A stretch of 64,000 bases of DNA from a virus. Its lineage: Duplodnaviria; Caudoviricetes. The stretch is from the IMG/VR virus record IMGVR_UViG_3300025867_000005; one strand, written 5' to 3'. The notes under the pieces were generated by a model. It was not told where the DNA came from. It ran no database searches and saw nothing but the letters and a program-made list of their open reading frames with translations. The translations under genes were made by a program, and so were the position numbers. The first letter of the stretch is position 1, and each line of letters begins with the position of its first letter. Below are positions 5,553 through 60,675 of the stretch, piece after piece.

Positions 5553-5834
5553 ATGGACTTAAAAACCGCTTTCAATCACTTCAGACAGATCCTCGAAAAG
5601 ACAGCCGATATCAGCATTCCCAAAGGAATCGGAGGAATGTGGACCCCGGATGCTAAAGAAACTAACGGGGACTTGATTCGGTTTACTTATGCCGGAGGTT
5701 ATGAACAACATATCTTTTCCAACAAGTTCAATTTTGCGATTATAAACACAGAAGGCATGGACGGTGAAGTCATTACCCTTCATGGCAAAGAAGAAGATGT
5801 TGAAGCCTGCTTAGAATTCTATGGAGTGGAATGA
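5553..5834 (+). CDS. hypothetical protein
   Basis: AAGGA SD before ATG 5553. Confidence 0.7.
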   Translation: MDLKTAFNHFRQILEKTADISIPKGIGGMWTPDAKETNGDLIRFTYAGGYEQHIFSNKFNFAIINTEGMDGEVITLHGKEEDVEACLEFYGVE

Positions 5835-6304
5835 AGATACTTTTTCTAGACATTGATGACGTGCTTAACCATTACGGGTGTGAAGACAAAATCAAACATG
5901 CGGACGGAAGTCCCTACTATGCCCCCGGAACGGACAAAGCCTATCGCGGGATAGATGATAACCGTTTGGAATTTCTCAAAGAAATCCTTTACAAAACAGG
6001 GTGCAAAATCGTCGTCTGTTCCTCTTGGCGGGATGATCCTGTTTGTATGGATTATCTAAAGAAACGTCTTGGTAAAGACGCAGATCGTATTATAGGAAGT
6101 ACAGTCATTTCACAAGGCAAACTTTCTAGAGCTGATGAAATTAGAGATTGGCTTTCTAAAAATACTGATGTCGAAAAATTTGTTGTTCTTGATGACAGCG
6201 AGTGGAATGATTTGGAAGGTTTCGGAGACCGTTGGGTTAAACCTGAGACCTTTAAAGGTATGGATGAAACGCATATGGATGCGGTAATAAAGAAACTCTC
6301 TTAA
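5831..6304 (+). CDS. HAD-family phosphatase (RNA-repair 'Swiss army knife' type)
   Basis: ILFLDIDDVL, IVVCSSWR, R-DEI--WL, FVVLDD motifs. Confidence 0.85.
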   Translation: MKILFLDIDDVLNHYGCEDKIKHADGSPYYAPGTDKAYRGIDDNRLEFLKEILYKTGCKIVVCSSWRDDPVCMDYLKKRLGKDADRIIGSTVISQGKLSRADEIRDWLSKNTDVEKFVVLDDSEWNDLEGFGDRWVKPETFKGMDETHMDAVIKKLS

Positions 6305-6375: not shown

Positions 6376-7185
6376 GTGAAAAATGATGCTTTTGGGGATA
6401 GGATGAAGGCTTATGAAGCCGCGACAGAAATCAATCTGATGCCGGGCCTTCCGGTTGTGGCAAGAATTGACGGAAGAAGCTTCCACACCTTCACACGGGG
6501 TATGAAAAGACCTTATGATGAAGGCATGTCAAACATGATGATAGATACCGCAAGGCGTCTTGCGATTGAAACGAATCCCGTCATTGCCTATACACAGAGT
6601 GATGAAATTACACTGATTTGGTACGCAGAGGGGAAATCACAGATTTGGTTTAACGGCAGGCACAGTAAGATGGTTTCTAACCTTGCCAGTCTCGCGACTC
6701 TGTATTTCTATCAGAGTTGTATGTGGCATAAACCCGACTATTGCACGAAGAACCCAAGCTTCGATTGTCGTGTATTCGGTGTCCCTACTAAGCAGGAAGC
6801 TTGCAACTGCCTGATCTGGAGAGAACAGGATGCGACGAAGAATGCCGTATCGATGTCGGCAAGGGCGTATTACAGCGACAAGGAATGTCACGGCAAAAAC
6901 GGAAGAGAAAAGCAGGAAATGCTTTTTCAGAAGGGTGTCAATTTCAACGATTATCCCCGTTTCTTCCGTAGAGGAACAATCCTTGTACCGGTTACAAAGA
7001 CGCACGGACGGGATGAATTGGATCTTTCTAAGCTGGGTCCGAAGCATCCTGCAAAGAACAATCCTAATTTCACCTTCGAACGGACGGAATGGGAATCTGT
7101 CGATTGGCCGGTTTTGACAAAGATCAGTAATCTCGTAGATATCATTTTTGACGGAGCGGTTCCGTGTACGAAAGCAAGCAAGTAA
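6376..7185 (+). CDS. thg1: tRNA(His) guanylyltransferase Thg1-like protein
   Basis: RMKAYE, RIDGRSFHTFT, YTQSDEI, FDCRVF, WREQDATKN motifs; GTG start with AAGGA SD. Confidence 0.93.
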   Translation: MKNDAFGDRMKAYEAATEINLMPGLPVVARIDGRSFHTFTRGMKRPYDEGMSNMMIDTARRLAIETNPVIAYTQSDEITLIWYAEGKSQIWFNGRHSKMVSNLASLATLYFYQSCMWHKPDYCTKNPSFDCRVFGVPTKQEACNCLIWREQDATKNAVSMSARAYYSDKECHGKNGREKQEMLFQKGVNFNDYPRFFRRGTILVPVTKTHGRDELDLSKLGPKHPAKNNPNFTFERTEWESVDWPVLTKISNLVDIIFDGAVPCTKASK

Positions 7186-7189
7186 GGGA

Positions 7190-8047
7190 ATGAATATGGA
7201 CAGATTTCAGCTTATGCAGACAGCGGACAATTTTTTGGCTAAATGTTTTCCAACTGTAGAAAAAACGGTTAGAAAACTCTGGTATAACCGTTTTCATTTT
7301 CAGGAACCACAAATGACGAAATGGGGTTTCAAAATGGCAGGAGAGAAGGAGATGATTGAGGCGAGGTATGAACCGCCCATTGAATCCTTCTTTGTCAAGT
7401 TGCTTCCACGCTTTGATATCTTTGTGAATATCGGGGCCAACATCGGATATTATTCTCTTTTGGCACGTCAACATGGAAAGAAAGTCATGGCTTTTGAACC
7501 CATGCCGGATAATCTAAAAATTTTCCTGCGGAATATCATGTCAAACACTGGCTTTGAAGACATCGAAGTCTTCCCGATTGCTTTGGCTGACAGGATCGGT
7601 GTGGTTGAAATTTTCGGCGGTGGAACCGGGGCCAGTCTTACTTCAGGATGGGCAGGTGTTAAGGATTACATGCGATCTTATGTCCCTGTTTCTACACTTG
7701 ATGGGACCATTGGGAACCGTCTAGGTGGGAAGAAGGCATTGATCATGGCAGATATGGAGGGGGCGGAATACAAGATGCTGTTAAAGGCAGAGAAGGCTTT
7801 AATCGCTAAGCCATACTGGATTATTGAAATCTCTGAATTGACGAAGCAAAACAGTGGAGAAAGGAACCCTAACACGAATAACATATTGCGTCTGTTTTGG
7901 GAAAAGGGATATCGAAGCTATGACATTGAAAAGGCTGTTGAAATTACACCTGACAATTTGGGCAAGCCATTCCCTCAGATGAATTCTTATCTCGGTAGCG
8001 GCAGCAACTTTTTCTTTTTCGACAAAGATGAGGAAATTCCTTCATGA
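7190..8047 (+). CDS. FkbM-family SAM-dependent methyltransferase
   Basis: FVNIGANIGYYS, AFEP, DMEGAE motifs. Confidence 0.88.
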   Translation: MNMDRFQLMQTADNFLAKCFPTVEKTVRKLWYNRFHFQEPQMTKWGFKMAGEKEMIEARYEPPIESFFVKLLPRFDIFVNIGANIGYYSLLARQHGKKVMAFEPMPDNLKIFLRNIMSNTGFEDIEVFPIALADRIGVVEIFGGGTGASLTSGWAGVKDYMRSYVPVSTLDGTIGNRLGGKKALIMADMEGAEYKMLLKAEKALIAKPYWIIEISELTKQNSGERNPNTNNILRLFWEKGYRSYDIEKAVEITPDNLGKPFPQMNSYLGSGSNFFFFDKDEEIPS

Positions 8048-9027: not shown

Positions 9028-9459
9028 ATGAAAAAGATTCAGCCACGCATCATCGTCAGTCAAGAGTGGATCAGCTTGGTTTTGAACAAACGCCGTCTTA
9101 CCTGTAGCTATGGCGGTGTGAAGGCTGGTAGCGGTATCCCCAAGCACGTTTTTGACAAGTGGCACAAGGCCGTCATGTTATTTGACGAGGATACCATTAA
9201 GGAACTCGGAGTCGAGCCTGAAGGCGCAACAGTCCTTCCTATCGTGGAGGCTTTTGCCAAGAACATCGATACGATTTGGCCGGAGTGGAATCAAGAAATT
9301 ATTCTTCCCAAACCTGATGAAATTGTCAAGGTCTTCATGGGCAAGCGCCGTGGCAATGTTGATGCCAAGGTTATTTCTTCCAAGGGCAATTATGTCACTT
9401 GCATCTTCCTTGATGACCATGAAACGCACCATGTCCATTTCGACATGATTGTGAAGTAA
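9028..9459 (+). CDS. hypothetical protein (C-terminal SH3/KOW-like strand pattern)
   Basis: GAAAGGA SD. Confidence 0.75.
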   Translation: MKKIQPRIIVSQEWISLVLNKRRLTCSYGGVKAGSGIPKHVFDKWHKAVMLFDEDTIKELGVEPEGATVLPIVEAFAKNIDTIWPEWNQEIILPKPDEIVKVFMGKRRGNVDAKVISSKGNYVTCIFLDDHETHHVHFDMIVK

Positions 9460-9529: not shown

Positions 9530-9772
9530 ATGTACAAAGGTAAGATTGGTAATCAGAACAAGGTTCTTCGTGGCGATTCAGATGTCAATGCCGGAGATAC
9601 CTTTTATGTCGAAGGGGATAGCACCGGTCGATTCATGGCTCTCCGATACACGCCACTCCCGGAATCCAGCAAGGAGCCGGCTTATAAGAACTTCGTGGTT
9701 CTTCATGTTGGAATGGTTGCGAAGTGTATTCATGCCGCCGAAACCAATACCGTTATTCCTTGGGTGAAGTAA
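9530..9772 (+). CDS. hypothetical protein
   Basis: GAAAGGA SD. Confidence 0.7.
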   Translation: MYKGKIGNQNKVLRGDSDVNAGDTFYVEGDSTGRFMALRYTPLPESSKEPAYKNFVVLHVGMVAKCIHAAETNTVIPWVK

Positions 9773-9773
9773 A

Positions 9774-10085
9774 ATGAAACTTAGACTTAAAATTTCATCC
9801 ACTGACGCAAGAATGGCAGATTCAACGATTTCAGACATCTTGGATTACCTTGCTGGTATCGGTCTAAAGGATTCCGTAATCGGACCGATTCCTTTACCTG
9901 TCAGACTTTCAGGGAATGGTAAGCGTGGGATTGTAGCCGGATTCATGCCTGTCTATTCCCGTATTCTTGATGTTGAAATGGGGTCTGTAACAGATTTTGA
10001 AAAGCGGTCTGAACTACTTTTGGCTTTTCAGAAACTGTGTATTTCTAACCAAGTCGGAATCATGATGGAGGAAATCAAACGATGA
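9774..10085 (+). CDS. diverged ribosomal protein uS10 / NusE-like protein
   Basis: KLRLKISSTDARMAD...GPIPLP-R...YSRILDV...FQKL---NQVGIM aligns by eye with uS10 RIRIRLKAFDHRLID...GPIPLPTR...HLRLVDI...LMRL---AGVDVQ; 103 aa. Confidence 0.7.
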   Translation: MKLRLKISSTDARMADSTISDILDYLAGIGLKDSVIGPIPLPVRLSGNGKRGIVAGFMPVYSRILDVEMGSVTDFEKRSELLLAFQKLCISNQVGIMMEEIKR

Positions 10086-10279
10086 AGTATAAATCTTGTG
10101 CGCAATGGAATAGTGCCGAAACCGGAATTGAATACAGTGAAGATTTTCATGCTTCTCCGGAAGCCGCAGAATCTGTTTGTCGAATGTTAAAAAGACAGGG
10201 TTTTGGTGGTCAAGGCAAGTTCTTCCCCGTCAGGACTTGGACAGAACCGTTTGCGGAATTCGATTACGAAAAGTCTTGA
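10082..10279 (+). CDS. hypothetical protein
   Basis: GGAGG SD, ATGA overlap. Confidence 0.7.
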   Translation: MKYKSCAQWNSAETGIEYSEDFHASPEAAESVCRMLKRQGFGGQGKFFPVRTWTEPFAEFDYEKS

Positions 10280-11381: not shown

Positions 11382-13334
<1,953 letters not shown>

Positions 13335-17549: not shown

Positions 17550-17875
17550 TTCTGTTTCCAATACCTGCATCCGAAGCTTTGCATAACATAAAGACCCTTG
17601 TTGTCTGCTGGAATACATGAATTATCCATTTCCAAAGCCAATTGGATAATTTTACAGAGACCTCCAAGCTGCCAGCCGCCTTCTTTTACGATATCCGTGT
17701 GCCATTTGAGTCTCTTAAAGTGCTTGCAACTTCCACAACACTGAGGATCTTCTTGAATCAGAGATTCCCTAATCTCTTTTTCAGATTTCCCGTTTAGGAT
17801 ATCAGAACTACAGGAACGTTTTGTATTTAAAGAAAATCGGTCAAATTCTGCCTGAATGTCATCTTCCGTGATCAT
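17546..17875 (-). CDS. Cys-rich hypothetical protein
   Basis: CCGSCKHF..C..C pattern; coupled. Confidence 0.7.
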   Translation of the reverse strand: MITEDDIQAEFDRFSLNTKRSCSSDILNGKSEKEIRESLIQEDPQCCGSCKHFKRLKWHTDIVKEGGWQLGGLCKIIQLALEMDNSCIPADNKGLYVMQSFGCRYWKQK

Positions 17876-19014
17876 AGATGAATCCCGTTTTTTGCTTTCA
17901 ACCAATTGACATATGCCTGATTTTCGCACATTCCCTTACCGGCATCATCGCTGATTTTGGCAACAGCTTGGCCGTCGAATTCCAGCATCTTCATAACGAT
18001 GTTCAATCCCTTGACACACAGATCATAGGTAAAGTCAGTTCCGATTCCGAAATAGATGTTACGGAACTTGCCGTAAAACACATCCACAAGCTTGAAGACC
18101 ATTTCCGGATTGAGGCTGTCGCTGAAACAGACATCCTTCGTACGGGGATCGATGCCCATGTTTTCGTAATGACCTAACACCTTGCTTCCCCAAGAGAAGG
18201 GACAACCGCTGTCATGCCGGACACCCGTATATAGGTTGGAAAGTTCCTCGTCGAATTCGCGAAGAAAGCAATCAATACCGAGGCAATCCGTCAAGGCAAT
18301 GCCGTACTTACCCTTGTATTCGTTTGCCCAAGCCCGAAGGATGAATGCCTGAGTCTTGGTAATGTCGGGGCTTAGAACCTGTCCTGCTTCTTCGATTTCA
18401 TGCGCCATAGTCCCGATACAAGGATAACCGCGTTCAATGGCCAAACCGATATTGCTGGTCCCGACGAAAGCATTCAAGTTCTTTGCAAGGTAATCCGTTA
18501 CCTCTGTATGCCAAGCCTTGCTGAAAGCCCTTCTGGTTCCCATTTCAATAAACCCGATTCCCTTTATAGGAAGCCCGTTGTAAAGCCTGACTTTCTTTTC
18601 AAGGCGCTTCCTGCCGTCAACAAGGATATCCTTGTTATTCGTCCAGCCGTTACGATCCGACCAAGCTTCCTGAATCTTGGAAAGGCTGTCGATTTCAAAC
18701 CAAGTCGCGTCTTCTACGTAACCACTGACACGATAGTCAAGATCCCCGTTCTTGTCTCTGCAAACAACATCACATGGCGAAAGGTTCATAAAGGAATCAG
18801 CATCGGCGATTCCCTTCCCTTTTAGGTATTCTGCCTGTCCCTTTGCACAGATCATAGGAGGAAGCTGCGGACCTGTGGGAAACAGATCGGCAAGACAGCC
18901 CAGCTTCTGGTCGCCGCGACTTTTGAAACCGAAAGTACAGGTATGCTTCCTGACTCCGAATTGCCGACGATAGACATTTGCCATCGTCGCCTTGTAAAAA
19001 TCCTGTCTGTTCAT
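17872..19014 (-). CDS. pncB: nicotinate phosphoribosyltransferase
   Basis: DFYK..M, EMGTRR, GTSN, GTMAHE, LTD, GVRHDSG, FSDSL, FGIGT, NIVMK, KISD..GK. Confidence 0.93.
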   Translation of the reverse strand: MNRQDFYKATMANVYRRQFGVRKHTCTFGFKSRGDQKLGCLADLFPTGPQLPPMICAKGQAEYLKGKGIADADSFMNLSPCDVVCRDKNGDLDYRVSGYVEDATWFEIDSLSKIQEAWSDRNGWTNNKDILVDGRKRLEKKVRLYNGLPIKGIGFIEMGTRRAFSKAWHTEVTDYLAKNLNAFVGTSNIGLAIERGYPCIGTMAHEIEEAGQVLSPDITKTQAFILRAWANEYKGKYGIALTDCLGIDCFLREFDEELSNLYTGVRHDSGCPFSWGSKVLGHYENMGIDPRTKDVCFSDSLNPEMVFKLVDVFYGKFRNIYFGIGTDFTYDLCVKGLNIVMKMLEFDGQAVAKISDDAGKGMCENQAYVNWLKAKNGIHL

Positions 19015-19019
19015 TATTT

Positions 19020-19751
19020 TCAGCCTTTCCAGTTATAGCTTTCGGTGAAAACAACACCTTTTTCCTTCATCTGTTTCGTCCATTCAGTCATGTCGAATCC
19101 GGGAATCGGGCTTGTGCAATCATTAAACACGATAATCTGAGTTTTGTCAAGTACATCGAAGTACTTCACCATATCGTCTACGGTTTGCTTGACACAGTGG
19201 CTAAGAGCTTCCCCGCAAACAAGAACCCTGTCATATCCGGAAATGTCTTTCAGAACATCCAGATTCTTACCCCTGCTAAAGGCGCTGTGCATTTCGAACC
19301 GGATATCCTGACCCTTTTCAACGAACCGGATGGGTTTGCCACATTTGACTTGCCAGTCATTGAGAACCGTCATCAAAGGAGTATAAACGCAATATCCGTG
19401 ATCTCCTTTAATGCAGTGTTCCGGCCAAATCATAACTGGTCCGTTCTTCTTAATGTCTGCCTTGACATAGACTTCACAGAAGCGAGGGGTAATCTTCTTA
19501 AGCATCACCTTGTCAACAAAGGTAAACGGTTTGACCTCACTTCCATCCTTCATTTGCCAGAAGCTTGGATGTCCGACGTGGATAACGCTATGGGCATCGA
19601 GACTGATCAAAACATCATCAATCTCTTTGCCATAAACCCCGATGAAGGAAATAAGCCTTGCCATATCCTGCTTGGCATTAGGAACCGGCAACATTCCGTT
19701 TTCTAAAACGAAATCATTCTGCGGATCAACAATAAACAGCAAATTCTTCAT
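19020..19751 (-). CDS. pncA: nicotinamidase (isochorismatase family)
   Basis: VDPQNDF, LDAH, WPEHC, KG, SAF, GEALSHCV. Confidence 0.9.
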   Translation of the reverse strand: MKNLLFIVDPQNDFVLENGMLPVPNAKQDMARLISFIGVYGKEIDDVLISLDAHSVIHVGHPSFWQMKDGSEVKPFTFVDKVMLKKITPRFCEVYVKADIKKNGPVMIWPEHCIKGDHGYCVYTPLMTVLNDWQVKCGKPIRFVEKGQDIRFEMHSAFSRGKNLDVLKDISGYDRVLVCGEALSHCVKQTVDDMVKYFDVLDKTQIIVFNDCTSPIPGFDMTEWTKQMKEKGVVFTESYNWKG

Positions 19752-20368: not shown

Positions 20369-21070
20369 TTAACGCCCAGCGCCTCCACCCCCGCAGCTTC
20401 CTCCGCCAAACCCACCTCCACCAAACCCGCCGCTACTACCAAACCCACCACCTAAACTGCCACCTCCACCAAACCCGCTACCGGAATAAGTGTCGTCATC
20501 GATAAAAATAACATAGATTACAATCAGGATGAAGATACAGATAAGGACGGCACCTATGATCGACAAAGCTTTACTATACGTATCTTCTGTCTTTTCCGGA
20601 ACAGGGTTGCCCCCAAGTTTCAAAAACTCCTGTTCTACAAGGTTGACGATTTCAATGATCTTCGCATCAACCACTTGTTTCTCTAGTCCCTTATCAAGAA
20701 TCTGTCCGCATTTCGAATCCGTGAACAACCCTTCAAGACCATAGCCGACAAGCAATCTTACCTTGTTCGGTTTGTTCGCCCTGAAGTTCTTGGCATTGAT
20801 AAAGAGAAGCAATCCGTTGTTCTTTTCCTTGTCTCCGATACCCGTCGTATTGAAAAATTCCCTACCGTCAACAAGGGTGTCTTGACAGTCTTCTACTGTT
20901 TTGACAGTGAATTCAACCTTGCCGCCGTCATACAGCTTCTGACCGACGTTTTGAATATAAGCAACTGTTTCCGGTTTCAACAGATTAGCATCGTCGAAAC
21001 ATCCGCTGTACGGGATTCCAAACACAACGCTTACTACAGACAGCCAAACAAGAATTAGGATTTTCTTCAT
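20369..21070 (-). CDS. TPM-domain membrane protein with Gly-rich tail
   Basis: signal peptide, D.ANLL, GIGDKEKNNGLLL, VGYGLEG..TD, TM helix, GGGFGGGS.GGGGAG tail. Confidence 0.9.
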   Translation of the reverse strand: MKKILILVWLSVVSVVFGIPYSGCFDDANLLKPETVAYIQNVGQKLYDGGKVEFTVKTVEDCQDTLVDGREFFNTTGIGDKEKNNGLLLFINAKNFRANKPNKVRLLVGYGLEGLFTDSKCGQILDKGLEKQVVDAKIIEIVNLVEQEFLKLGGNPVPEKTEDTYSKALSIIGAVLICIFILIVIYVIFIDDDTYSGSGFGGGGSLGGGFGSSGGFGGGGFGGGSCGGGGAGR

Positions 21071-21095
21071 TTTCTTTATTCCTTTCGTTAACGCT

Positions 21096-21677
21096 TTACT
21101 CAAAACTTACAGTCACGCCATTCTGACGAGCCTTGTCACTGGCTTCAAAATACTGACGTTTTTCAACTTTGGCAATCCCTACAATCAGACTTGTGGGGAA
21201 GGTTCGGATTTTTGTATTCAGTTCCTTCGCCGTCTTGTTGTAATCCATACGGGCGACAGTAATTCGGTTTTCACAACCCTCTAGCTGATCTTGCAATTGA
21301 ATGAATTGCTTGTCTGCCTTAAGATTCGGGTAGTTCTCCGTCAACATCATCAGTCGTCCCAAAGCCTTGCTTAGTCCATCATTGGCTTCATACTTCTCTC
21401 CCGCCGTCTTCGCATTCAGAAGCTGAGACCTTGCCTTCGCAATGTCTTCCATCACACGGCTTTCGTGCTTGGCATATCCCTTGACTGTCGCCACAAGGTT
21501 AGGAATCAGTTTGTCCTTACGTTCCAACTGGTTATCAACCTCTGCCCATGCCGAATTGCATTTCTCGTCCATAACCTGCAATCCGTTATACGTCGCCAAA
21601 ATCGGCATAATAAACAGAAATGCAATCGCAAACAAGATTCCGAATACCGTCAAACAACCAACCATAGCACTTTTCAT
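21096..21677 (-). CDS. lemA: LemA family protein
   Basis: N-terminal TM, W..V...L.R...IPNLV.TVKGYA.HE, ENYPNLKA, ENRI..AR..YN. Confidence 0.93.
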   Translation of the reverse strand: MKSAMVGCLTVFGILFAIAFLFIMPILATYNGLQVMDEKCNSAWAEVDNQLERKDKLIPNLVATVKGYAKHESRVMEDIAKARSQLLNAKTAGEKYEANDGLSKALGRLMMLTENYPNLKADKQFIQLQDQLEGCENRITVARMDYNKTAKELNTKIRTFPTSLIVGIAKVEKRQYFEASDKARQNGVTVSFE

Positions 21678-21699
21678 TTTACCTTCTTTCTTTTTACCT

Positions 21700-22014
21700 T
21701 TACTTCCACATCTTTCCCATATCTGATGGAGAAAGTTCTTTTGTATCTGGAAGATTTGGAACATCCATTTTCTTCCATACGCCTACGTATCCTTCTTCCT
21801 GTTTTTCCTTATCGAAAGGCCGAAGAATAACAAACTGACCTTGACAAATCCCGATTAGTTTTTTGCCATGACCAATCGTTATGATTTCCACAGGATGCAA
21901 TCGGAATTCCGGAGGGATGCTTCCTGTAAAGTGGCCTCCCATCGTTCCGAAACTCCATTCACCGTACAGCCACCAAAACCCTTCGGAATCAGGGGGTGTT
22001 TTCTTCCAATTCAT
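21700..22014 (-). CDS. hypothetical protein
   Basis: coupled ORF. Confidence 0.7.
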   Translation of the reverse strand: MNWKKTPPDSEGFWWLYGEWSFGTMGGHFTGSIPPEFRLHPVEIITIGHGKKLIGICQGQFVILRPFDKEKQEEGYVGVWKKMDVPNLPDTKELSPSDMGKMWK

Positions 22015-22450: not shown

Positions 22451-22479
22451 ACTATATCAAAGGTTCCCTAATCTGTCAA
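22451..22479 (-). promoter_or_regulatory. sigma70-like early promoter
   Basis: TTGACA-17-TATAGT, TG extension. Confidence 0.8.
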
Positions 22480-23130
22480 GTGGGTCAGAAGATTATTCCA
22501 ACCTCTGATAAGGAATTCGGCATATGCCTTTGAATCTTCTCCGTACCATCCGATGCTGTATGGATGATGGAATTCTACAAGTTCAAGCCTTCCGTTTTCC
22601 AATCTCCCAACGTCTAATGCCCCGTATACATCTTTGGGCATTTCCAATTCCAAGACGGGTGCCGGTTCGTCTTCATCACAACCTTGATACCAGCCTGTTT
22701 CAAGAATCTTGCCGCCACAGACGTAATATCTCCATTCCTGTTCGAACTTAACCACATCGGAAACCCAATATCCATCCGCCAGATATTCTTCTGAAAGCCG
22801 TCCCTTCTCCTTTACAAACCCCGTGAAGGCTTTGTATTCTCCTGCTGGCTTGATAAAACATTTGCGGACAGGTGCGGTTACAACAAGCTTAATCTTCCTA
22901 GAAATCAGGGATGACGCCCAAGACGGATAATAATCGGGTTCGAAACAGTGTTCTAAGACGGATTCTATGAAGTCTGTGCTTCCCACAAAAAGACTCTTGT
23001 TAATGTCAAAGTCTTTCACTGTCTTAGAAACACGAAACGGCGTGCCGGTTAAGGCACACCATTTATGCATCGCAAGGAATTCCCTTCCACTGATTCCTTG
23101 TTCAAAAACAACGATTTCCGGATTAAACAC
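22468..23130 (-). CDS. ATP-grasp domain protein (R2K/DUF4343-like)
   Basis: FIKP..K.FTG, EWRYYV, ALDVG, LVE; likely GTG start at 23130. Confidence 0.8.
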   Translation of the reverse strand: MFNPEIVVFEQGISGREFLAMHKWCALTGTPFRVSKTVKDFDINKSLFVGSTDFIESVLEHCFEPDYYPSWASSLISRKIKLVVTAPVRKCFIKPAGEYKAFTGFVKEKGRLSEEYLADGYWVSDVVKFEQEWRYYVCGGKILETGWYQGCDEDEPAPVLELEMPKDVYGALDVGRLENGRLELVEFHHPYSIGWYGEDSKAYAEFLIRGWNNLLTHLTD

Positions 23131-23353
23131 TTCTGGATTTTTCCTTGAAGTCTGGACATTCAAAGACAGGAGTAGTCATGTTGTTTAGAACGCAAAGTTC
23201 ATAAAGTTCATTGGCCATCTTACAGTTGTCTTCTGTCCCTGGTTTGAATTTTCCACAACTGAAACAAAGACAATGTTCCCTGTGTTTGCCTTTAAGCAGA
23301 GTCCTTGTCCAAACCATTCTGCCGTGATGCATATACTGTTCGAATTCGTTCAT
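23123..23353 (-). CDS. Cys-rich hypothetical protein
   Basis: AGGAG SD; HCLCFSC. Confidence 0.7.
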   Translation of the reverse strand: MNEFEQYMHHGRMVWTRTLLKGKHREHCLCFSCGKFKPGTEDNCKMANELYELCVLNNMTTPVFECPDFKEKSRSV

Positions 23354-41526: not shown

Positions 41527-43962
41527 ATGATTATTAAAAATATATTCTTTATAGTATTATTATCATGTATTTCTGTCTTCGGACAAATCTATCAGATGCC
41601 TAATACTGATGTTACTAATGGATTAATTGCTCATTATAAATTAGACGAAATGTCATATGATGGGACCGCTGGTGAAGTTAAAGACAGTAGTGGTAATGGG
41701 AATAATGGGACTAGTTATGGAGGCGTTCTTACCAACCCTGGGAAAATAGGCAGAGCGGGATATTTTGATAGTGTAAGTCATATTAATGCCATGTTACCTT
41801 CCGTATTGGAAATGCCAGTATCCTTATCATTATGGGTTAATTTTGAAGAAAATAAATTAATCACATCAGTTTCAACCGTTATTTCTTTTGAATCGTATAG
41901 GCCAAGAATCAGTTTTACGACATATAGAGGATATCTTTCGTATGAAATATATCATTCAAGTCTAGGCGGAGATATTATATTTAAAGTAGGTAGCATAGGG
42001 GATAATAAATGGCATCTAATGACACTAGTACTATCATCAACAAACTCTATATGCTATGTAGACGGGACTAAGAATATGCCATTGATTGATGCTGTTTGTC
42101 CTTCGTTTTTAAACGGTTGGATTCGTCTAAGTTCAGTGACTGATGATAATTCCCAAAAATTCAATGGTCTTATTGATGATGTCCGTATTTACGACCGAGC
42201 ACTGTCTCCTGAAGAAGTCATTAAACTTTACAATCTAGGATTTCCTAAGAAACAGATAGTGGTATATAGTCCTAAAACTATTCCCTATGAATGTCTTCCC
42301 ACAAATGGACTGATTGCCCATTGGAAGCTTGATGAAACGAGTTATAATGGAACTCAGGGAGAAGTTAAGGATAGTTCTGGAAACGGAAATAATGGGACAA
42401 GTCTTGGACATGTAATTACCAATCCAGGAAAGATTGAACGCTGCGGGATATTCGATGGCCTAGATACGGGAGTGTATGTGCCCGCCCTTGACAACTATTT
42501 AGACACAAAATCCGCCGCTACATTTTCTTGTTGGATTAAAACATCTAAAGTCCAGCATCGTAAACTGATCTTGGGATGGTGGTGTTCTTATGATAATTGC
42601 ATAAGGCTTGAAAGCGGATATTTACGTTTTTTTTTGAAAACAGACACAACACCATATTCAACAATACAGATTGAAGAATCCCAAATAAATGATGGAAAAT
42701 GGCATTTCTTATGTGGAACATATGACGGCGCGAAGCAAGTGCTTTTCGTAGATGATGATTTTCAATCGGTTGATCTGACGGGTATCATAGTGTCTCCCGA
42801 CATATTTGGGTTTGGCACTATCGGGACTCTTTCTGAGTATAGCTTTGACGGTTCTATAGATGATGTCCGCGTCTATAACCGTGCTTTGTCTCATAAAGAA
42901 GTTCAAGAACTTTATAACGCTAGACCGATTAAGGATTCAGCAGTAGCAGTGTATAGTGGAAATACATTGGTCAGTAATCCGTTGAAGAAGGATTACCCGA
43001 ATACTGTTTCGGAGAATATCGAGCCGGTCACGCTGACATTTAAGTATGTCAGCACATATCCAGCGGCCATAACGATTGGTAGAGGTTCGTATGGACAGCC
43101 TGCCGATCCGTCCAAAGCTCTGGTAGACGCCGGTGACGGCGTGTTTGTACCGTGGACAAGCAACACGATAACGCTCAAAGGTAAGCAGATCAGATTTAGG
43201 GGTGACTGGCGCAATACAGCAGGAAACTTCATGGAATTGTTCAGTAGCACTTTCATTGGCGGACATTATGTCACAATGTCAGGTGGGTTTGATTTTGAGG
43301 GTGCGCCAGCGGCCTACATGTTCCAATCCACTTTCTATGGCTGCTCAAATCTGACAGGTCCGATTCCATCTGGTTTGTTCGGCGCGATTTCTGGCACGCC
43401 AGCGGCCAACATGTTCAATAGCACTTTCACTGGCTGCTCAAGGCTGACAGGTCCGATTCCATCTGGTTTGTTCGGTAATATCTCCGGTGCGCCAGCGGCC
43501 AACATGTTCTATGTCACTTTCTATGAGTGCTCAAATCTGACAGGTCCGATTCCATCTGGTTTGTTCGGTAATATCTCCGGTGCGCCAGCGGCCAACATGT
43601 TCAATAGCACTTTCACTGGCTGCTCAAGGCTGACAGGTCCGATTCCATCTGGTTTGTTCGGCAATATGTCTGGCACGCCAGCGGCCGACATGTTCAATAG
43701 CACTTTCACTGACTGCTCAAGGCTGACAGGTCCGATTCCATCTGGTTTGTTCGGTAATATCTCCGGTGCGCCAGCGGCCAACATGTTCAATAGCACTTTC
43801 TATAGGTGCCCAAATCTGACAGGTGAATCCGCCTTGATGCCAGACGGCACAACACACTTATATGAGCAGTTTCCGACTGCCAGCGGAACTGACTGTCAGC
43901 GATGCTATTACAACGCGACCGGGCTGAACGATTACGCGACAATGCCAAGCGCGTGGAAGTAA
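41527..43962 (+). CDS. exported protein: two LamG/ConA-like domains plus BspA-like LRR domain
   Basis: TNGLIAH.KLDE..DSSGNGNNGT..F.G.IDDVR.Y.RALS twice; C-terminal 31-aa repeats. Confidence 0.85.
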   Translation: MIIKNIFFIVLLSCISVFGQIYQMPNTDVTNGLIAHYKLDEMSYDGTAGEVKDSSGNGNNGTSYGGVLTNPGKIGRAGYFDSVSHINAMLPSVLEMPVSLSLWVNFEENKLITSVSTVISFESYRPRISFTTYRGYLSYEIYHSSLGGDIIFKVGSIGDNKWHLMTLVLSSTNSICYVDGTKNMPLIDAVCPSFLNGWIRLSSVTDDNSQKFNGLIDDVRIYDRALSPEEVIKLYNLGFPKKQIVVYSPKTIPYECLPTNGLIAHWKLDETSYNGTQGEVKDSSGNGNNGTSLGHVITNPGKIERCGIFDGLDTGVYVPALDNYLDTKSAATFSCWIKTSKVQHRKLILGWWCSYDNCIRLESGYLRFFLKTDTTPYSTIQIEESQINDGKWHFLCGTYDGAKQVLFVDDDFQSVDLTGIIVSPDIFGFGTIGTLSEYSFDGSIDDVRVYNRALSHKEVQELYNARPIKDSAVAVYSGNTLVSNPLKKDYPNTVSENIEPVTLTFKYVSTYPAAITIGRGSYGQPADPSKALVDAGDGVFVPWTSNTITLKGKQIRFRGDWRNTAGNFMELFSSTFIGGHYVTMSGGFDFEGAPAAYMFQSTFYGCSNLTGPIPSGLFGAISGTPAANMFNSTFTGCSRLTGPIPSGLFGNISGAPAANMFYVTFYECSNLTGPIPSGLFGNISGAPAANMFNSTFTGCSRLTGPIPSGLFGNMSGTPAADMFNSTFTDCSRLTGPIPSGLFGNISGAPAANMFNSTFYRCPNLTGESALMPDGTTHLYEQFPTASGTDCQRCYYNATGLNDYATMPSAWK
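43303..43825 (+). repeat. 93-bp tandem repeat, about 5.6 copies, encoding LRR units
   Basis: units start at 43303, 43396, 43489, 43582, 43675, 43768; core CTGACAGGTCCGATTCCATCTGGTTTGTTCGG identical in five units. Confidence 0.95.
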
Positions 43963-55103: not shown

Positions 55104-57494
55104 TCAATCGTTGTCGGGATCATCTGACATCATCACGATTTTCGGTTGAAAAATTCCACAAATCCCAACCAAATCCTTTTGCGCATCCATCACACCGGCA
55201 ACATCTTTATAGGCCATCGGGCATTCATCTAACCCACCATCAAGGAGTTCTACGCCTTTGGCATTAAGGAATTCCTGCATCTCCTTCTTCGAGAAAGTTT
55301 CCTTTGCCTGTTTTCTCGACATCGTGCGTCCGCTTCCGTGACTACAACTGCAAAGGCTGGCTTCATTTCCATTTCCTTTGACGTAGTATGAAGGCGTTCC
55401 CATACTTCCGCCGATTAAGGCTTCTTGGTTCAATTGGGCCTGAACCGCACCTTTTCGATGGACAATCACATCCATTTCCTTGCCATTGATAATGTGTTTT
55501 TCTTTCCAAGCGAAATTGTGATTCGTAAAAACGGTATAAGACGGACTCAATCCCAAGAATTTACTGATACGGTAATGAATCATTTCATGGCTCACTCTTG
55601 CGAAAGCCGCACACAATTCCATCGCCGCCCAATATTCTTTACCGCTATCGGTGTCCAAATCAAGCCACGCCCAACCATGAAAATCCTTGTTGTCAAAATT
55701 TTCGCAAGCGAGTTCATGGTAAAGTTTGGCGATCTTATATCCGACACCACGGCTACCGCTATGGCTAAGCAATGCAAGGTTAGGGATATCTCCGTCAATC
55801 ATTTCTGTAAGTGTTCCGAAGTCTACGAAGTGATTCCCGCTTCCCGAAGTACCGATCTGGTTTTCGGCGAGCTTTTTGATGTTGTATTTCTTCAACATCG
55901 GGATATCAGTCCACAGACTGCTTTCAAGAACTGTGGTTTCAAATCCACTGGGAATGAGGCCCTTCTTCTCATTCAATCCCACACCGAAGCAGGTCTGTTT
56001 CTGCAAAGCGTCCTTCATCTTCATTCTGAAAGCGTTATTCCTTTCAGGGAAACTTACTCCTTCGAACACTGACATTTTCATGCTACAATTATGCACAAAA
56101 ACGCCGCTCGCAAGCGCAAAATTATGGAAATCTTCAACTTCCAAACAGAATACATCTGATTTTCTGTCGATTTTATTTACAGAAATAACTTTGTGGTTGT
56201 TATGTTTATGCTTCTTGTGATTATATAAGCCGATATTGCTTTTAACAAGTTCTCCGCAAATATCACAAGCACGTAGTTTATTCGCAATTTCTTTCCGGAT
56301 AACTGACGCTCTTTCTGTTTGCAGGAATTCTTTTAAATACTTTTTTCCCCTTTGTCCGTTCCCACTGACAATTTCTTTGAATTCTACTGGGTGTTCTTTT
56401 TGGAACTTTAATGAATTTTCCCTCGCAATAGACTGTTTTTTAGCCTTAAATCTTTGATCATAAAACCCATCTTTTTTAAGCTTTTTTATTCTATTGTTTT
56501 TAAATTCTTTACTCCTAAGAAAATCGATTCTTTCTTTCGCATGTAAAGAAGAATGATCTTTAGTGGACATTATGCGTAAATTTTCTGGACGGTTATCATA
56601 TTGATTTCCATTTGCATGATGGATAACAAATCCTTTTTCAAGTTTTCCGTTATAAATTTCAGAAACAAAAGAATGTGTTCTTTGCGTTTTCTTTACATTA
56701 GGCTGATAGATGTATTCATATCCATCTCTATCTGAGTATGAACGATAAAATGGCATAAGGCTATCTTTATATACTAAGTTCTGCGCTTCTTTATACCTAC
56801 CGTCTCTTAGCATAAATAAGTGATCTGGCGTACAAACAATTTCTTCCCCTCCAGAAATTCTTACAGAAACTAGACTTGCATTCTCTTTCACCTTAAACGC
56901 TTTCGCCTTCGCCGGAACAATCATCCCGCTATTATTAATAGAATATACCCAAAAACTTTCAATTTCATTGGTCAATTCTTTAAAACTTTTCTGAGTCCCG
57001 TCTAGCATCGCGACTCTTGTTTCAGGAGGAAAACAGGAAATATCCACTCCTACGGCATTAGGAATAACTTGGTTTGCAGTAGCAAGGATTCCCCCAATCG
57101 GCAAAGAATAACCCTGATGCGCGTCACTAGAAAGGGCACCAGCAACGGCGACAGGTAGCCGCATAGCGGTAATCATCTGATCAATCGCACCCTGTTCAAT
57201 ATGTTCCTTGCCGAAGATATTGAAGGGGAGATTTTCATTCCTGAGTTGAATGTTCTTCTTCTCTTTTTCTTCTTTGTAATCGAAGAACACTTTCATCAAA
57301 TCCAAACTTGCCGGGCAATCTCCGTGACAAGTGTTGATTTTCTTAGGAAGTTTACCGCTAAGGAAGCCTTCACAGATTTGACGGATTCCTTGCTCTGTAA
57401 AATCTCCGTTTGTGTTGATAATCTTTAGAAGCCGTCCAAAATAAGAATCAGGAAGCATTCCCAACGTGATTAAAAAGTCGCCTTTGATCTTCAT
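55104..57494 (-). CDS. rtcB: RtcB RNA ligase containing an intein
   Basis: DAHQGY.LPIGG, PNAVGVDI-(intein)-C, GTSGSGNHF, SHSGSRG, HNFA, VHRKGA, GSMG, SHGSGR, DE.P.AYK; start ATG 57494 with AAGGAG SD. Confidence 0.95.
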   Translation of the reverse strand: MKIKGDFLITLGMLPDSYFGRLLKIINTNGDFTEQGIRQICEGFLSGKLPKKINTCHGDCPASLDLMKVFFDYKEEKEKKNIQLRNENLPFNIFGKEHIEQGAIDQMITAMRLPVAVAGALSSDAHQGYSLPIGGILATANQVIPNAVGVDISCFPPETRVAMLDGTQKSFKELTNEIESFWVYSINNSGMIVPAKAKAFKVKENASLVSVRISGGEEIVCTPDHLFMLRDGRYKEAQNLVYKDSLMPFYRSYSDRDGYEYIYQPNVKKTQRTHSFVSEIYNGKLEKGFVIHHANGNQYDNRPENLRIMSTKDHSSLHAKERIDFLRSKEFKNNRIKKLKKDGFYDQRFKAKKQSIARENSLKFQKEHPVEFKEIVSGNGQRGKKYLKEFLQTERASVIRKEIANKLRACDICGELVKSNIGLYNHKKHKHNNHKVISVNKIDRKSDVFCLEVEDFHNFALASGVFVHNCSMKMSVFEGVSFPERNNAFRMKMKDALQKQTCFGVGLNEKKGLIPSGFETTVLESSLWTDIPMLKKYNIKKLAENQIGTSGSGNHFVDFGTLTEMIDGDIPNLALLSHSGSRGVGYKIAKLYHELACENFDNKDFHGWAWLDLDTDSGKEYWAAMELCAAFARVSHEMIHYRISKFLGLSPSYTVFTNHNFAWKEKHIINGKEMDVIVHRKGAVQAQLNQEALIGGSMGTPSYYVKGNGNEASLCSCSHGSGRTMSRKQAKETFSKKEMQEFLNAKGVELLDGGLDECPMAYKDVAGVMDAQKDLVGICGIFQPKIVMMSDDPDND
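56088..57035 (-). mobile_element. intein (316 aa) with HNH homing endonuclease and C2H2-like Zn finger
   Basis: CFPPETRV..LDG block A, CTPDH.F block B, HH..G...DN..ENL, CDIC..H...H, VFCLEVE..HNF....VFVHN|C; AT-richer than flanks. Confidence 0.93.
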
Positions 57495-57522
57495 GTCTTT
57501 TATCTCCTTTGTTATGCCGTAT

Positions 57523-57551
57523 ACTATATAGAATTTTATCCTACTTGTCAA
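57523..57551 (-). promoter_or_regulatory. sigma70-like early promoter for rtcB
   Basis: TTGACA-17-TATAGT. Confidence 0.78.
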
Positions 57552-57738
57552 TACCGTCAAGACACAAATCAAGACTATCTCCCATTTTATAGAAAGATCG
57601 TCCGTTTTTATCCCACATCAGGTTCTTGATTCTGATTTTAGGGACTTCCTTGATAACAACCTGACCACGATAGGGATATTCTGTTTCTCCTTCTACCGTC
57701 CTGAAATTGATGACCCTTTTCCCTGATTTAGTTTGCAT
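57541..57738 (-). CDS. hypothetical protein
   Basis: GGGGA SD; W...G.......LDL motif. Confidence 0.65.
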   Translation of the reverse strand: MQTKSGKRVINFRTVEGETEYPYRGQVVIKEVPKIRIKNLMWDKNGRSFYKMGDSLDLCLDGIDK

Positions 57739-58495: not shown

Positions 58496-58880
58496 TTACG
58501 CACCACGTTCGTCTGCACGTTCATTGATAATGGCAAGCTGGCCGCAGGCCGCACCGGCCTCAACCTCGGCCTTCGTGGCAATCGCAACCGCATTGTCATA
58601 ACCAGCGTCTTCCAACTGTTTCTGAATCTTTTTCAATTTCTTTTTTCCATTTTGGGGCTTCTGTGACTGATGTGACGGCGAAAATAACCTCTCCTCCGGG
58701 GTTGTCATAGACGTTGTAATGATGCACGATACCGGCCTCAATTACAGAATCTTTAGGGAACATCGGAAGACATTCCTGAAGAGCATTTAAAGGAATTCCA
58801 GACTGTCCCGGAGTCGCACAAAGTAGCCATCCGTATTCGTATCTGACAATCTTATACAGTTCTTTCACTATTCTTTCCAT
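58496..58880 (-). CDS. hypothetical protein with apparent +1 frameshift in an A5 run (58629-58633)
   Basis: MERIVKE...WKKEIEK joins IQKQLEDAGYDNAV...GA if one A is removed. Confidence 0.55.
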
Positions 58881-59953
58881 TTCTTTAAAATAAAGGGATT
58901 GATTCCCCATGATTTTATGAGCAACTGCGTAGGGTCAAGTAAAATATCCTTGTCTTGTTCGTAACTCTTACTTGCCGTCTTCTGCCCACATGGATACAGT
59001 TCGATATGAAGCATTGAAGTATTGTGGCCAGGAATATCAGGGCGTTCTTTTCCGGGTTTCAACACCCGCTTGACAGTGCCGATCAAAGCTCCGCAAGAGA
59101 CTTCCATTCCTACCTTAATCCCAAATGACGGTTCAATCTCACCATAGCATACGGTTCCGAATCTGTGTTGAATCAAAACGCATTTCGTGTCTTCCCACCA
59201 AGGGGAATCATCTCCTTTGCCCGTAAAATCTTCAATGCTTACCACGATTCCGGGTGCCATGCTATAAACAGGGGTATCGTTTTCGCAATACAAATCGACA
59301 CCGGTATGGGGTGAAAACTTGCGTTCCCCGAGGAAAGATCCGGGATGATTTTCCCCAATAGGGATACCCGCACAATCTTCAACGTCCATTGGGAAAGAAG
59401 GGGCAGTCCATTCGTCCACGATTTCTTTAATTGTGTCGATTTCCGCCAAGGCACCCATTCCCTTATCCCCACATGCCAAAACCTTTTCTTGTGGCGGAAC
59501 AAGTTTTACATTCCAGTTTTCAAGCTTTTTCAGGTGTTCATCCGTCTCGGGATGATCCCACATATAGGAATTCATTGCAGGTGCGACGATGACTGGCTTA
59601 TTCCTATGCCAAGCCCGATAGACACTAGAGGCCAGATCATCGCAAATTCCATTTGCCATTTTAGAAAGGAAGTCTGCACTTGCGATAACAAGCAAGACAT
59701 CATTGTTCTTAGCGATTTGAATATGCGGAATTTCATCTTCCTTGTTATAGCCGCCAATCGGAGGTCTCGGCCATTCGGAGTCATCGTCCAAGAAAGATTC
59801 AGCGAAAGGAGAACCGATCCCCTGTGGAGCGTAAAAATACTTTGCCTTCTTCGTAAAGACGGGGGTAACATTATAGTCACCACAAAAGGCTTTGTAGATT
59901 TTAGGAGCTAGTTTAGAAGCGACAGTTCCGGTAAAAACAATACAGATATTCAT
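58868..59953 (-). CDS. coaC: phosphopantothenoylcysteine decarboxylase (CoaC) fused to an M23-peptidase-like domain
   Basis: TGTVA, HI, SADFLSK.A.GI.D.L, APAMN..MW.HP, LACGD.G.G; then HTGVDL, VY....G.V, V..G..V..G..IG, LHIE. Confidence 0.88.
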   Translation of the reverse strand: MNICIVFTGTVASKLAPKIYKAFCGDYNVTPVFTKKAKYFYAPQGIGSPFAESFLDDDSEWPRPPIGGYNKEDEIPHIQIAKNNDVLLVIASADFLSKMANGICDDLASSVYRAWHRNKPVIVAPAMNSYMWDHPETDEHLKKLENWNVKLVPPQEKVLACGDKGMGALAEIDTIKEIVDEWTAPSFPMDVEDCAGIPIGENHPGSFLGERKFSPHTGVDLYCENDTPVYSMAPGIVVSIEDFTGKGDDSPWWEDTKCVLIQHRFGTVCYGEIEPSFGIKVGMEVSCGALIGTVKRVLKPGKERPDIPGHNTSMLHIELYPCGQKTASKSYEQDKDILLDPTQLLIKSWGINPFILKKWKE

Positions 59954-60675
59954 TGATCCATTCCTTTCTTGAACACAAACTCTTTCATTATTTCATCTTT
60001 CAGCGTTTTGTGGGAAATTATCAATGGACTTGTACGTCCATTGATAATTGCGATTTCATGATTGCCGTTCAAAATACTCCTGAGATCATTCGCGCATACC
60101 AAATCAAGACTGTTATCTACAAAACTCTTTTCTGCGGCTTCCAAAAGTTCAGATTCTTTAACGTCTACAAGCAGTTTGAAACCGATGATAAAAGCCTTTT
60201 CTCCTGCCCACTTACGGACACTGGAAATGACTTTGGGTAAAGGCTTAAGAACAATATTCAGATTTTCCTTTGTTCTGATTTTACCCTTAACAACTGTTTC
60301 CGGTGCATAGTCACTCACGGCGGCGGCAAGAATAATAAGATCGGGCTTGTAAATCGCAATCAAGTGTTCAAGCCCACTCTGATAGTCTTCGAAAGACTTA
60401 TAGGTATGTTCCTTATAGTGGTGGGAAAAAGCTTCCCATCGGCCTTTTGCGTTTTCAAAACACTTAAGGTTTTCATCGATTGACTCGGAAGCAAAGTCAA
60501 TTTCTGCTTTCATCGGGGATTTCGATTTCTCCGCACGGAAGAAAATGACTTCATCTCCAGACAACAGGAAATCTTTGGCAAGACGGGTTCCGAGAGTCCC
60601 GTTGCTCATGTTTCCGATATGCCTGACGCTATCAATCGCTATTCTTGTTCCACCACTTGTAATCAATACTTTCAT
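59950..60675 (-). CDS. coaB: phosphopantothenate--cysteine ligase (CoaB)
   Basis: VLITSGGT...ID.VR.I.N.S.G..G, AAAVSDY, KI, PKVI, GFKL, AND. Confidence 0.92.
   Translation of the reverse strand: MKVLITSGGTRIAIDSVRHIGNMSNGTLGTRLAKDFLLSGDEVIFFRAEKSKSPMKAEIDFASESIDENLKCFENAKGRWEAFSHHYKEHTYKSFEDYQSGLEHLIAIYKPDLIILAAAVSDYAPETVVKGKIRTKENLNIVLKPLPKVISSVRKWAGEKAFIIGFKLLVDVKESELLEAAEKSFVDNSLDLVCANDLRSILNGNHEIAIINGRTSPLIISHKTLKDEIMKEFVFKKGMDQ

Follow-up and report, generated by a model that had tools for sequence, protein, structure and literature searches.

A diverged phage homologue of ribosomal protein uS10/NusE with a trimmed hairpin and a predicted NusB-binding surface

S10/NusE is a textbook case of moonlighting: it works in the ribosome and also in transcription antitermination, and so far these two jobs have been separated by engineering only, in the loop-deleted form S10-delta-loop. 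A gene in a 64,000-nucleotide stretch of phage DNA (IMG/VR virus record IMGVR_UViG_3300025867_000005, Caudoviricetes; hereafter the window) raises the question of which job, if either, an S10 carried by a phage would do. The gene is a 103-codon open reading frame (ORF) running from ATG to TGA at positions 9774 to 10085 of the plus strand, stop codon included, and it encodes a uS10/NusE-like protein, labeled P0001, as supported by its translation, by database matches to uS10 only and by its ratio of nonsynonymous to synonymous differences (pN/pS). Our analysis indicates that P0001 most likely acts away from the ribosome, as a NusE-like partner of host NusB. A natural, phage-borne and ribosome-independent NusE would be notable and, for a specialist, easily testable, the link to transcription being in silico so far. 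If this is true, phages can bring their own Nus factor and not merely borrow that of the host, and in Bacteroidota, whose antitermination has received little study, P0001 would provide a separation-of-function allele, already at hand, for work on NusB, NusE, and NusG.

Homology of P0001 to the uS10 family

The original prediction, made from the sequence alone, had read uS10 core motifs in the 103-aa ORF, and all of those it quoted are present (KLRLKISS.D.R..D, GPIPLP.R, SRILDV and a terminal hydrophobic strand). The uS10 family profiles concerned are PF00338 (Ribosomal_S10) in Pfam and TIGR01049 and NF001861 in NCBIfam. P0001 gave no match in Pfam at an E value of 10 or below, and its sole match in PHROGs (E 0.067) is meaningless. 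Among the sequences of the Protein Data Bank (PDB), all 34 matches were uS10, the top one being the loop-deleted Aquifex NusE 3r2c_J (E 0.004, residues 2 to 76). In NCBIfam, three S10 equivalog models were the only matches (E 1e-3 to 2e-2, residues 2 to 44), and the S10 score of 19.1 bits lies below the curated membership cut-off of 72.75.

By searching for relatives, we found P0003 and P0005, which come from syntenic phage contigs and are 63 to 65% identical to P0001, and P0004, an 85-aa protein (gene length, 258 nt) that is 48% identical over residues 1 to 70 and was retrieved with an E value of 4e-4 from a library of 1.8 billion proteins. P0003 and P0004 match S10 models more strongly than P0001 does. 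P0004 passes the cut-off of Pfam Ribosomal_S10 (27.4 bits versus 21.2, profile positions 1 to 97 of 98) and aligns over its full length with dozens of solved uS10 chains; it is a clean bridge between P0001 and the uS10 family. Because its neighbor falls in a phage-only PHROG, P0004 is probably phage-borne too. The 162-aa neighbor of P0004 was also considered as a relative of the 162- and 172-aa ORFs near the P0001 gene and proved unrelated. The whole P0001 family is tiny, with four clusters at 90% identity among 5.8 billion. The relatives also settle the start codon: because all of them begin with MKLR(L/I)K, we place the true start at 9774 (ATG), and the public gene call P0002 (90 aa), which begins at Met14 and omits strand β1, starts too late. 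This truncation makes P0001 harder still to recognize by automated annotation.

The AlphaFold2 model of P0001 was built from a five-row alignment with canonical S10 sequences among the rows, and the sequence evidence described above is independent of it. The model (predicted local distance difference test score [pLDDT], 77.7) has strands at residues 2 to 9, 35 to 46, 58 to 68, and 95 to 101 and helices at residues 12 to 28 and 75 to 92, in the element order of S10. In a Foldseek search with this model, the top 50 matches were almost all uS10-family chains, drawn from all domains of life (E 6.5e-7, probability 1.0), and VIA-align superposed it on uS10 with Z scores of 11 to 12. Of the structural matches, the loop-deleted NusE 3r2d_J came closest in sequence, with 31% identity (Z 11.2, root mean square deviation of 1.7 Å over 78 of 79 residues). 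The similarity of P0001 to uS10, as judged from these comparisons, is beyond chance, and P0001 is a diverged homologue of the uS10 family, not the orthologous ribosomal protein uS10. The prediction of a phage uS10/NusE homologue thus stands, with profile or structural matches to uS10 from PDB, NCBIfam, Pfam (for P0004), Foldseek, and VIA-align.

An identical P0001 protein is encoded on contigs of 303 to 304 kb, and the window carries virion-protein and lysis-type genes; it is part of a jumbo phage of about 300 kb. The contig of a relative was binned in a Paludibacteraceae metagenome-assembled genome (MAG) from a landfill, and the probable host belongs to Bacteroidales.

That uS10 is not a common ribosomal protein of phages, as had been claimed, agrees with a survey that used the Ribosomal_S10 hidden Markov model and lists 14 viral ribosomal proteins without uS10 (Mizuno et al. 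2019, PMC6375957). In a comparison of 224 jumbo-phage genomes, S10, NusE, NusB, and NusG are never mentioned (PMC7824862). Neither the literature nor the databases that we searched yielded any account of a phage uS10. A tblastn search of INPHARED with P0001 returned nothing, and what a canonical S10 query matched there seems to be bacterial contamination (records annotated as rpsJ, short fragments, and contigs labeled Salmonella). BFVD gave no clear S10 match (best E 6.7e-4, with a template modeling [TM] score of about 0.5), and a scan of IMG/VR viral contigs with the family alignment yielded no confirmed relative. PHROGs v4 holds a family of "unknown function," phrog_35964 (103 positions), that matches canonical S10 proteins over their full extent (E 1e-8 to 1e-10); its match to P0004 is weak, and P0001, P0003, and P0005 do not match it. 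Because of this end-to-end match, it seems that full-length S10-like genes already lie unannotated in viral collections.

The trimmed hairpin and the retained NusE surface

The segment of P0001 still recognizable as S10 is the β1-α1-β2 core with GPIPLP (residues 1 to 44; 9774 to 9905, plus strand), where profile matches cover residues 2 to 44 or 46; GPIPLPVR occupies residues 37 to 44 at the end of β2 and is invariant across four relatives. In place of the 24-residue hairpin that canonical S10 inserts into the ribosome, residues 45 to 60 (9906 to 9953, plus strand) form a short Gly-rich segment, LSGNGKRGIVAGFMPV. Two reference proteins, the canonical S10 P0006 and L009, which is the S10 of the Paludibacteraceae MAG, were aligned with P0001, and the segment from PLPxR to β3 counts 16 residues in P0001 versus 24, is unrelated in sequence, and holds none of the conserved loop residues, which bears out the claim that the conserved loop had been replaced by a shorter one. 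In P0004, the same segment is about 12 to 13 residues long. The hairpin stub is modeled as coil at residues 47 to 57 (pLDDT 64 to 68). The rest of the protein (residues 61 to 103; 9954 to 10082, plus strand) comprises β3, about seven added residues, α2, and β4, as seen in the alignment and in the predicted secondary structure, and it is the most diverged half in the alignment to canonical S10. Because of the insertion between β3 and α2, the total length of P0001 still looks canonical. In E. coli S10, the C-terminal half bears the face for the C-terminal domain (CTD) of NusG.

Basic contacts to rRNA have been lost as well. In Aquifex NusE, R11, R45, and K46 contact 16S rRNA (PMC3177189), and their equivalents in P0001 are Ser8, Arg44, and Leu45, so that only one of the three is kept. 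The alignment with 3r2c_J further shows Arg13, Asp16, and Arg44 of P0001 at the positions of Aquifex R16, D19, and R45, and Lys6 is the retained equivalent of K9. The net charge is +2 in P0001 (pI 8.9) and 0 in P0004, compared with +10 (pI 10.05) in the S10 of the Paludibacteraceae MAG, to which P0001 is 22% identical overall. Such losses, in hairpin length, basic contacts, and charge, would be expected of a protein no longer under selection to bind rRNA, and they make ribosome binding of P0001 appear less likely. It is because of these losses, and not because of surface conservation, that pairing with NusB can be separated from service in the ribosome.

We examined the NusB side of the question by complex prediction. 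We paired P0001, represented by its five-row family alignment, with the NusB of the Paludibacteraceae MAG (316 aa from the conserved Met) aligned with 25 Bacteroidales NusB sequences. The complex scored 0.78 (three runs, 0.77 to 0.78), versus 0.00 for the best of three controls; when the tool was calibrated, 58 of 80 solved complexes and 2 of 110 mismatched pairs attained this mark, a calibration that is rough here, where our own alignments were supplied. The runs had at least 93% of contacts in common, with a partner pLDDT of at least 76. On the P0001 side, the predicted interface comprises residues 4, 12 to 13, 16, 19 to 20, and 23 (α1), residues 32 and 36 to 43 (GPIPLPV), and parts of β3 and β4, so that most of it falls within residues 1 to 44. 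On the NusB side, it comprises residues 12 to 13, 16 to 17, and 20 to 22 of helix 1 and the loops 240 to 245 and 278 to 282, and it includes Tyr16, which we take to be the equivalent of E. coli NusB Tyr18. The Y18D change has been placed at the NusB:NusE interface (PMC3177189). In the model, the contact surface is that of the canonical NusB:NusE interface; a modeled complex with host NusB, which the original prediction had named as a check, thus places P0001 on Bacteroidales NusB at the canonical NusE surface when run with controls.

The residues that P0001 has in common with canonical S10 are concentrated at this interface. With P0006 it shares 12 of the 23 interface residues and 15 of the 80 elsewhere (p 0.002); for the S10 from the Paludibacteraceae MAG, the counts are 9 of 23 and 14 of 80 (p 0.03). 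Such enrichment alone cannot tell NusB binding from ribosome binding, since uS10 also buries this surface within the 30S subunit.

A NusE-like role away from the ribosome, and its rivals

According to the above-described analysis, we favor, with modest confidence, the explanation that P0001 no longer serves in the ribosome and uses the NusE surface it has kept to pair with host NusB, so that it changes Nus-dependent antitermination. P0001 would have lost most of the features that anchor uS10 in the 30S subunit and would work off the ribosome; its α1/β2 surface would pair with host NusB, as NusE does in the NusB:NusE:boxA complex. Such pairing would furnish the phage with a NusE-like subunit of its own, supplied independently of the ribosome, with altered Nus-dependent processive antitermination by host RNA polymerase as the likely consequence. 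We infer this effect on transcription, as well as its direction, which could be one of two. P0001 may provide free NusE for complexes on phage transcripts and promote antitermination on the long operons of the phage, or it may trap NusB in complexes unable to couple to NusG or RNA polymerase and thereby harm host rRNA synthesis. The diverged C-terminal half of P0001 would fit the trap. By analogy, we slightly favor the supply of NusE on phage operons, because loop-deleted S10 binds NusB and supports lambda antitermination, according to the statement in PMC3177189 that cites Luo 2008.

This engineered S10-delta-loop is the closest known thing to P0001. Residues 46 to 67 of the E. coli protein, or 47 to 68 of the Aquifex protein, were replaced by Ser (PDB 3D3B, 3R2C/3R2D, and 2KVQ), which leaves, as in P0001, an S10 body without the long hairpin. 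P0001, however, is natural and phage-encoded, carries a Gly-rich stub of 16 residues where the engineered forms have one Ser, has about seven extra residues before α2, and is only about 20 to 30% identical to it. With cellular uS10/NusE, P0001 shares the fold, the order of strands and helices, GPIPLP, the equivalents of Arg16, Asp19, and Arg45, and the predicted NusB surface; it differs in the missing Pfam match, in the trimmed and unrelated hairpin, in its charge (+2 versus +10), and in the location of its gene, which stands outside an S10 operon among small phage genes between the Thg1-like and NAD-dependent ligase genes.

The nearest structural cluster in the ESM Atlas (TM 0.71 by query) is a NusB+S10 fusion of Verrucomicrobiota (223 aa, 59 members; PF00338 in 100% and PF01029 in 97%). 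Its description suggests the same kind of thing, a dedicated copy of the S10 fold tied to NusB and not to the ribosome, but the fusion is cellular and covalent, whereas P0001 stands alone and would need to find host NusB. Our search for longer, fused forms gave no NusB fusion among its best 120 matches; the only fused forms were rpsJ joined to tuf, fusA, or rplC, which we took as gene-call artifacts (nearly all single-sequence clusters). Lambda N, which acts with NusA, NusB, NusE, and NusG at nut sites, has the same target that P0001 would have under our favored explanation. Lambda, however, uses an unrelated adaptor, RNA sites, and borrowed host S10, while the phage described here would bring its own copy of a Nus factor, and neither an N-like protein nor a nut/boxA site was identified for it, the boxA scan having used the E. 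coli consensus in the 64-kb window.

Several points weigh against pairing with NusB. Inside the 30S subunit, uS10 buries the very α1/β2 surface that P0001 retains, and GPIPLP persists also where there is no NusB; for both reasons, conservation of this surface is not specific to NusB. Because NusB:NusE complexes have already been solved (3D3B and 3R2C), the pass in complex prediction may reflect memory of the family, and it shows likeness to a NusB-binding NusE, not binding. The host is assigned solely from the contig of a relative in the Paludibacteraceae MAG. At the pocket for NusB and boxA U8, NusE has His15 and Arg16, and His15 braces E81 of NusB (PMC3177189). P0001 keeps the second as Arg13 (Gly in P0004) and has lost the first, which is Ala12. 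This loss weighs little, because the host-lineage S10 of the Paludibacteraceae MAG itself carries Tyr-Asn at these two positions. Finally, boxA-like sites stand at chance level. A search for them, proposed together with the original prediction, gave 30 matches versus 27.4 expected, with up to three mismatches to the E. coli rrn consensus, which may not be the Bacteroidales boxA, in the 64-kb window of a phage of about 304 kb. An Rfam scan of the window found no family, and a tRNA scan found no gene. The reading of P0001 as a NusE mimic, which the original prediction had put forward, is partly supported, namely, by its homology, its trimmed hairpin, and a predicted NusB surface.

The S10 fold may also have been re-used for a partner other than NusB, such as a KOW-containing protein of the phage, a phage RNA, or a host defense factor for which P0001 would be a decoy. 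We regard this as possible though doubtful. When compared with the allele on the related contig L001, the P0001 gene has a dN of 0.29, 2.5 to 8 times that of the flanking genes, and such fast nonsynonymous change is expected for a protein that chases a partner or takes part in a conflict. The half facing the NusG CTD in E. coli S10 is also the most diverged one in P0001 and carries the insertion. Paralogues of S10 that have taken on new roles are known; the chains from mitoribosomes that top the VIA-align list appear to be mL48. A possible partner of this kind is a 186-aa ORF of the same phage genome, about 23.5 kb past the window end (L049:16597-17157), in a region that we reached by walking along contigs with identical proteins. 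Its KOW-like segment matches KOW2_Spt5 at E 0.011, which is sub-threshold, and the KOW of the Paludibacteraceae MAG NusG at 30% identity over 44 residues (pairwise E 0.017), and it overlaps a 198-aa ORF with sub-threshold matches to sigma-70 region 4. The two ORFs, which together span L049:16597..17750, are a plausible lead to a candidate phage transcription module and a second partner of P0001. These KOW and sigma matches all fall below curated cut-offs, however, and at the position that we take to be that of E. coli NusG Phe165 the phage protein has His; NusB, the sole interface examined in silico, passed cleanly. Two NusG paralogues of the MAG (L015 and L016) were also considered as phage genes and appear to be host genes, L016 standing among glycosyltransferase-like ORFs. 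A bolder form of the NusB explanation joins P0001, host NusB, and the KOW-domain protein of the phage into a phage-owned antitermination module of the Nus type, with which host RNA polymerase would read through long operons independently of the ribosome-bound S10 pool, and supposes that a transcription-only NusE evolved repeatedly in huge phages; this we consider speculative and rather unlikely.

Alternatively, P0001 could be a replacement uS10 that the phage builds into host 30S subunits to form a specialized ribosome. Virus-encoded ribosomal proteins (bS21, bL12, bL9, HPF, and others) are likewise phage-carried homologues, and phage bS21 and bL12 do enter ribosomes (PMC6375957). The surface conserved in P0001 is the one uS10 uses within the 30S subunit, the stub still has Lys50 and Arg51, the equivalents of R45 and K9 are retained as Arg44 and Lys6, and the phage is rich in translation and RNA-repair functions (Thg1, HAD_SAK, RtcB, and R2K ATP-grasp). 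The known viral ribosomal proteins, however, resemble those of their hosts, with about 30 to 54% identity to cellular proteins for the ribosome-entering bS21 and bL12, while P0001 is very diverged, at 22% identity to the host-lineage S10, and has lost ribosome features; nor does uS10 belong to the exchangeable, loosely bound ribosomal proteins typical of viruses, being absent from the 14 viral ones (PMC6375957). With a hairpin eight residues shorter and stripped of all conserved loop residues, two of the three globular rRNA-contact basic residues of S10 lost, and a net charge of +2 against +10, P0001 is distinctly unlikely to replace uS10.

By comparing the P0001 gene with its L001 allele, we obtained a pN of 0.243 and a pS of 0.79 (saturated), and a ratio of about 0.31 means that the gene is constrained. 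Its stop codon overlaps the ATG of the next ORF (ATGA), and its start lies 1 nt after the stop of an 80-aa ORF. Extreme divergence, the missing Pfam match of its own, and only four family clusters at 90% identity might suggest a decaying, functionless remnant of a captured rpsJ, which is very improbable given this ratio with saturated synonymous sites, a frame intact in every copy, conserved synteny, translational coupling to the neighbors, a confidently predicted fold (pLDDT 77.7), and conservation concentrated on one surface.

Neighboring genes and the rest of the genome

The P0001 gene belongs to a small block that also contains a 143-aa ORF and the 80-aa ORF; the block lies between the Thg1-like and ligase genes and is conserved in several related contigs (L001 to L005). 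The 80-aa ORF (9530 to 9772, plus strand), 1 nt upstream of the P0001 start, is 85 to 94% identical across this synteny, and we found no lead for it in Pfam, PHROG, or ESM Atlas. When positions 9530 to 10085 of the window are compared with 5757 to 6309 of L001, the 80-aa ORF has a dS of 0.17 and 94% amino acid identity, while the adjoining S10-like gene is saturated, with 63% identity. Because divergence jumps so sharply between the two, there appears to be a recombination boundary or an allele replacement at or next to the S10-like gene.

Further upstream, the 143-aa ORF (9028 to 9459, plus strand) is conserved in synteny at 75 to 82% identity. Its C terminus resembles by eye that of a NusG-KOW protein, an assignment that we rejected: Pfam gave only faint matches of the SH3/KOW type, GPKOW_C (E 0.14) and, for the L001 homologue, Myosin_N (E 0.023), a phmmer search of PDB gave nothing, the AlphaFold2 pLDDT was 54, and the hhalign probability against the MAG NusG was 0.3%. 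Feature searches of ESM Atlas with the 143-aa protein returned nothing usable. Downstream, a 65-aa ORF (10082 to 10279, plus strand), whose ATG overlaps the P0001 stop, is not conserved, with 25% identity to the same-position ORF in L001 and L002. In relatives, a 147-aa ORF with a MutS_I domain stands just downstream of the S10-like gene. The ligase is intact as one gene of 645 to 646 aa in the window (11397 to 13334) and in L002, whereas in L001 (8153 to 11605), and likewise in L003 and L004, it is broken up into a 234-aa adenylation fragment, a 349-aa DUF7487 gene, and a 554-aa remainder with a hint of intein splicing.

Other genes of the window form an RNA end-healing and -sealing toolkit, namely, a HAD_SAK_2 phosphatase (5831 to 6304), the Thg1-like 3'-5' polymerase (6376 to 7185), an FkbM-type methyltransferase (7148 to 8047), the NAD-dependent DNA ligase mentioned above, and an RtcB interrupted by an HNH-containing intein (55104 to 57572). 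Cofactor metabolism is represented by NAPRT-like and isochorismatase-like genes of the NAD-salvage type (17872 to 19751) and by a gene with the DFP C-terminal domain that adjoins a flavoprotein/Peptidase_M23 gene (58868 to 60675). An ATP-grasp enzyme of the R2K clade (22468 to 23163) lies near LemA (21096 to 21764) and TPM-phosphatase (20369 to 21103) genes; R2K enzymes are predicted peptide ligases and have been discussed under phage takeover of host transcription and translation (PMC7824862).

The 13-mer TGCTATTGAACAT occurs at 43411, 43597, 43690, and 43783, as minus-strand matches in the ORF at 41527 to 43962, and a variant that differs by one base occurs at 43237. The spacing is 93 bp among the last three copies and twice as much between 43411 and 43597, which suggests tandem repeats of about 31 residues in the 811-aa virion-type protein that this ORF encodes.

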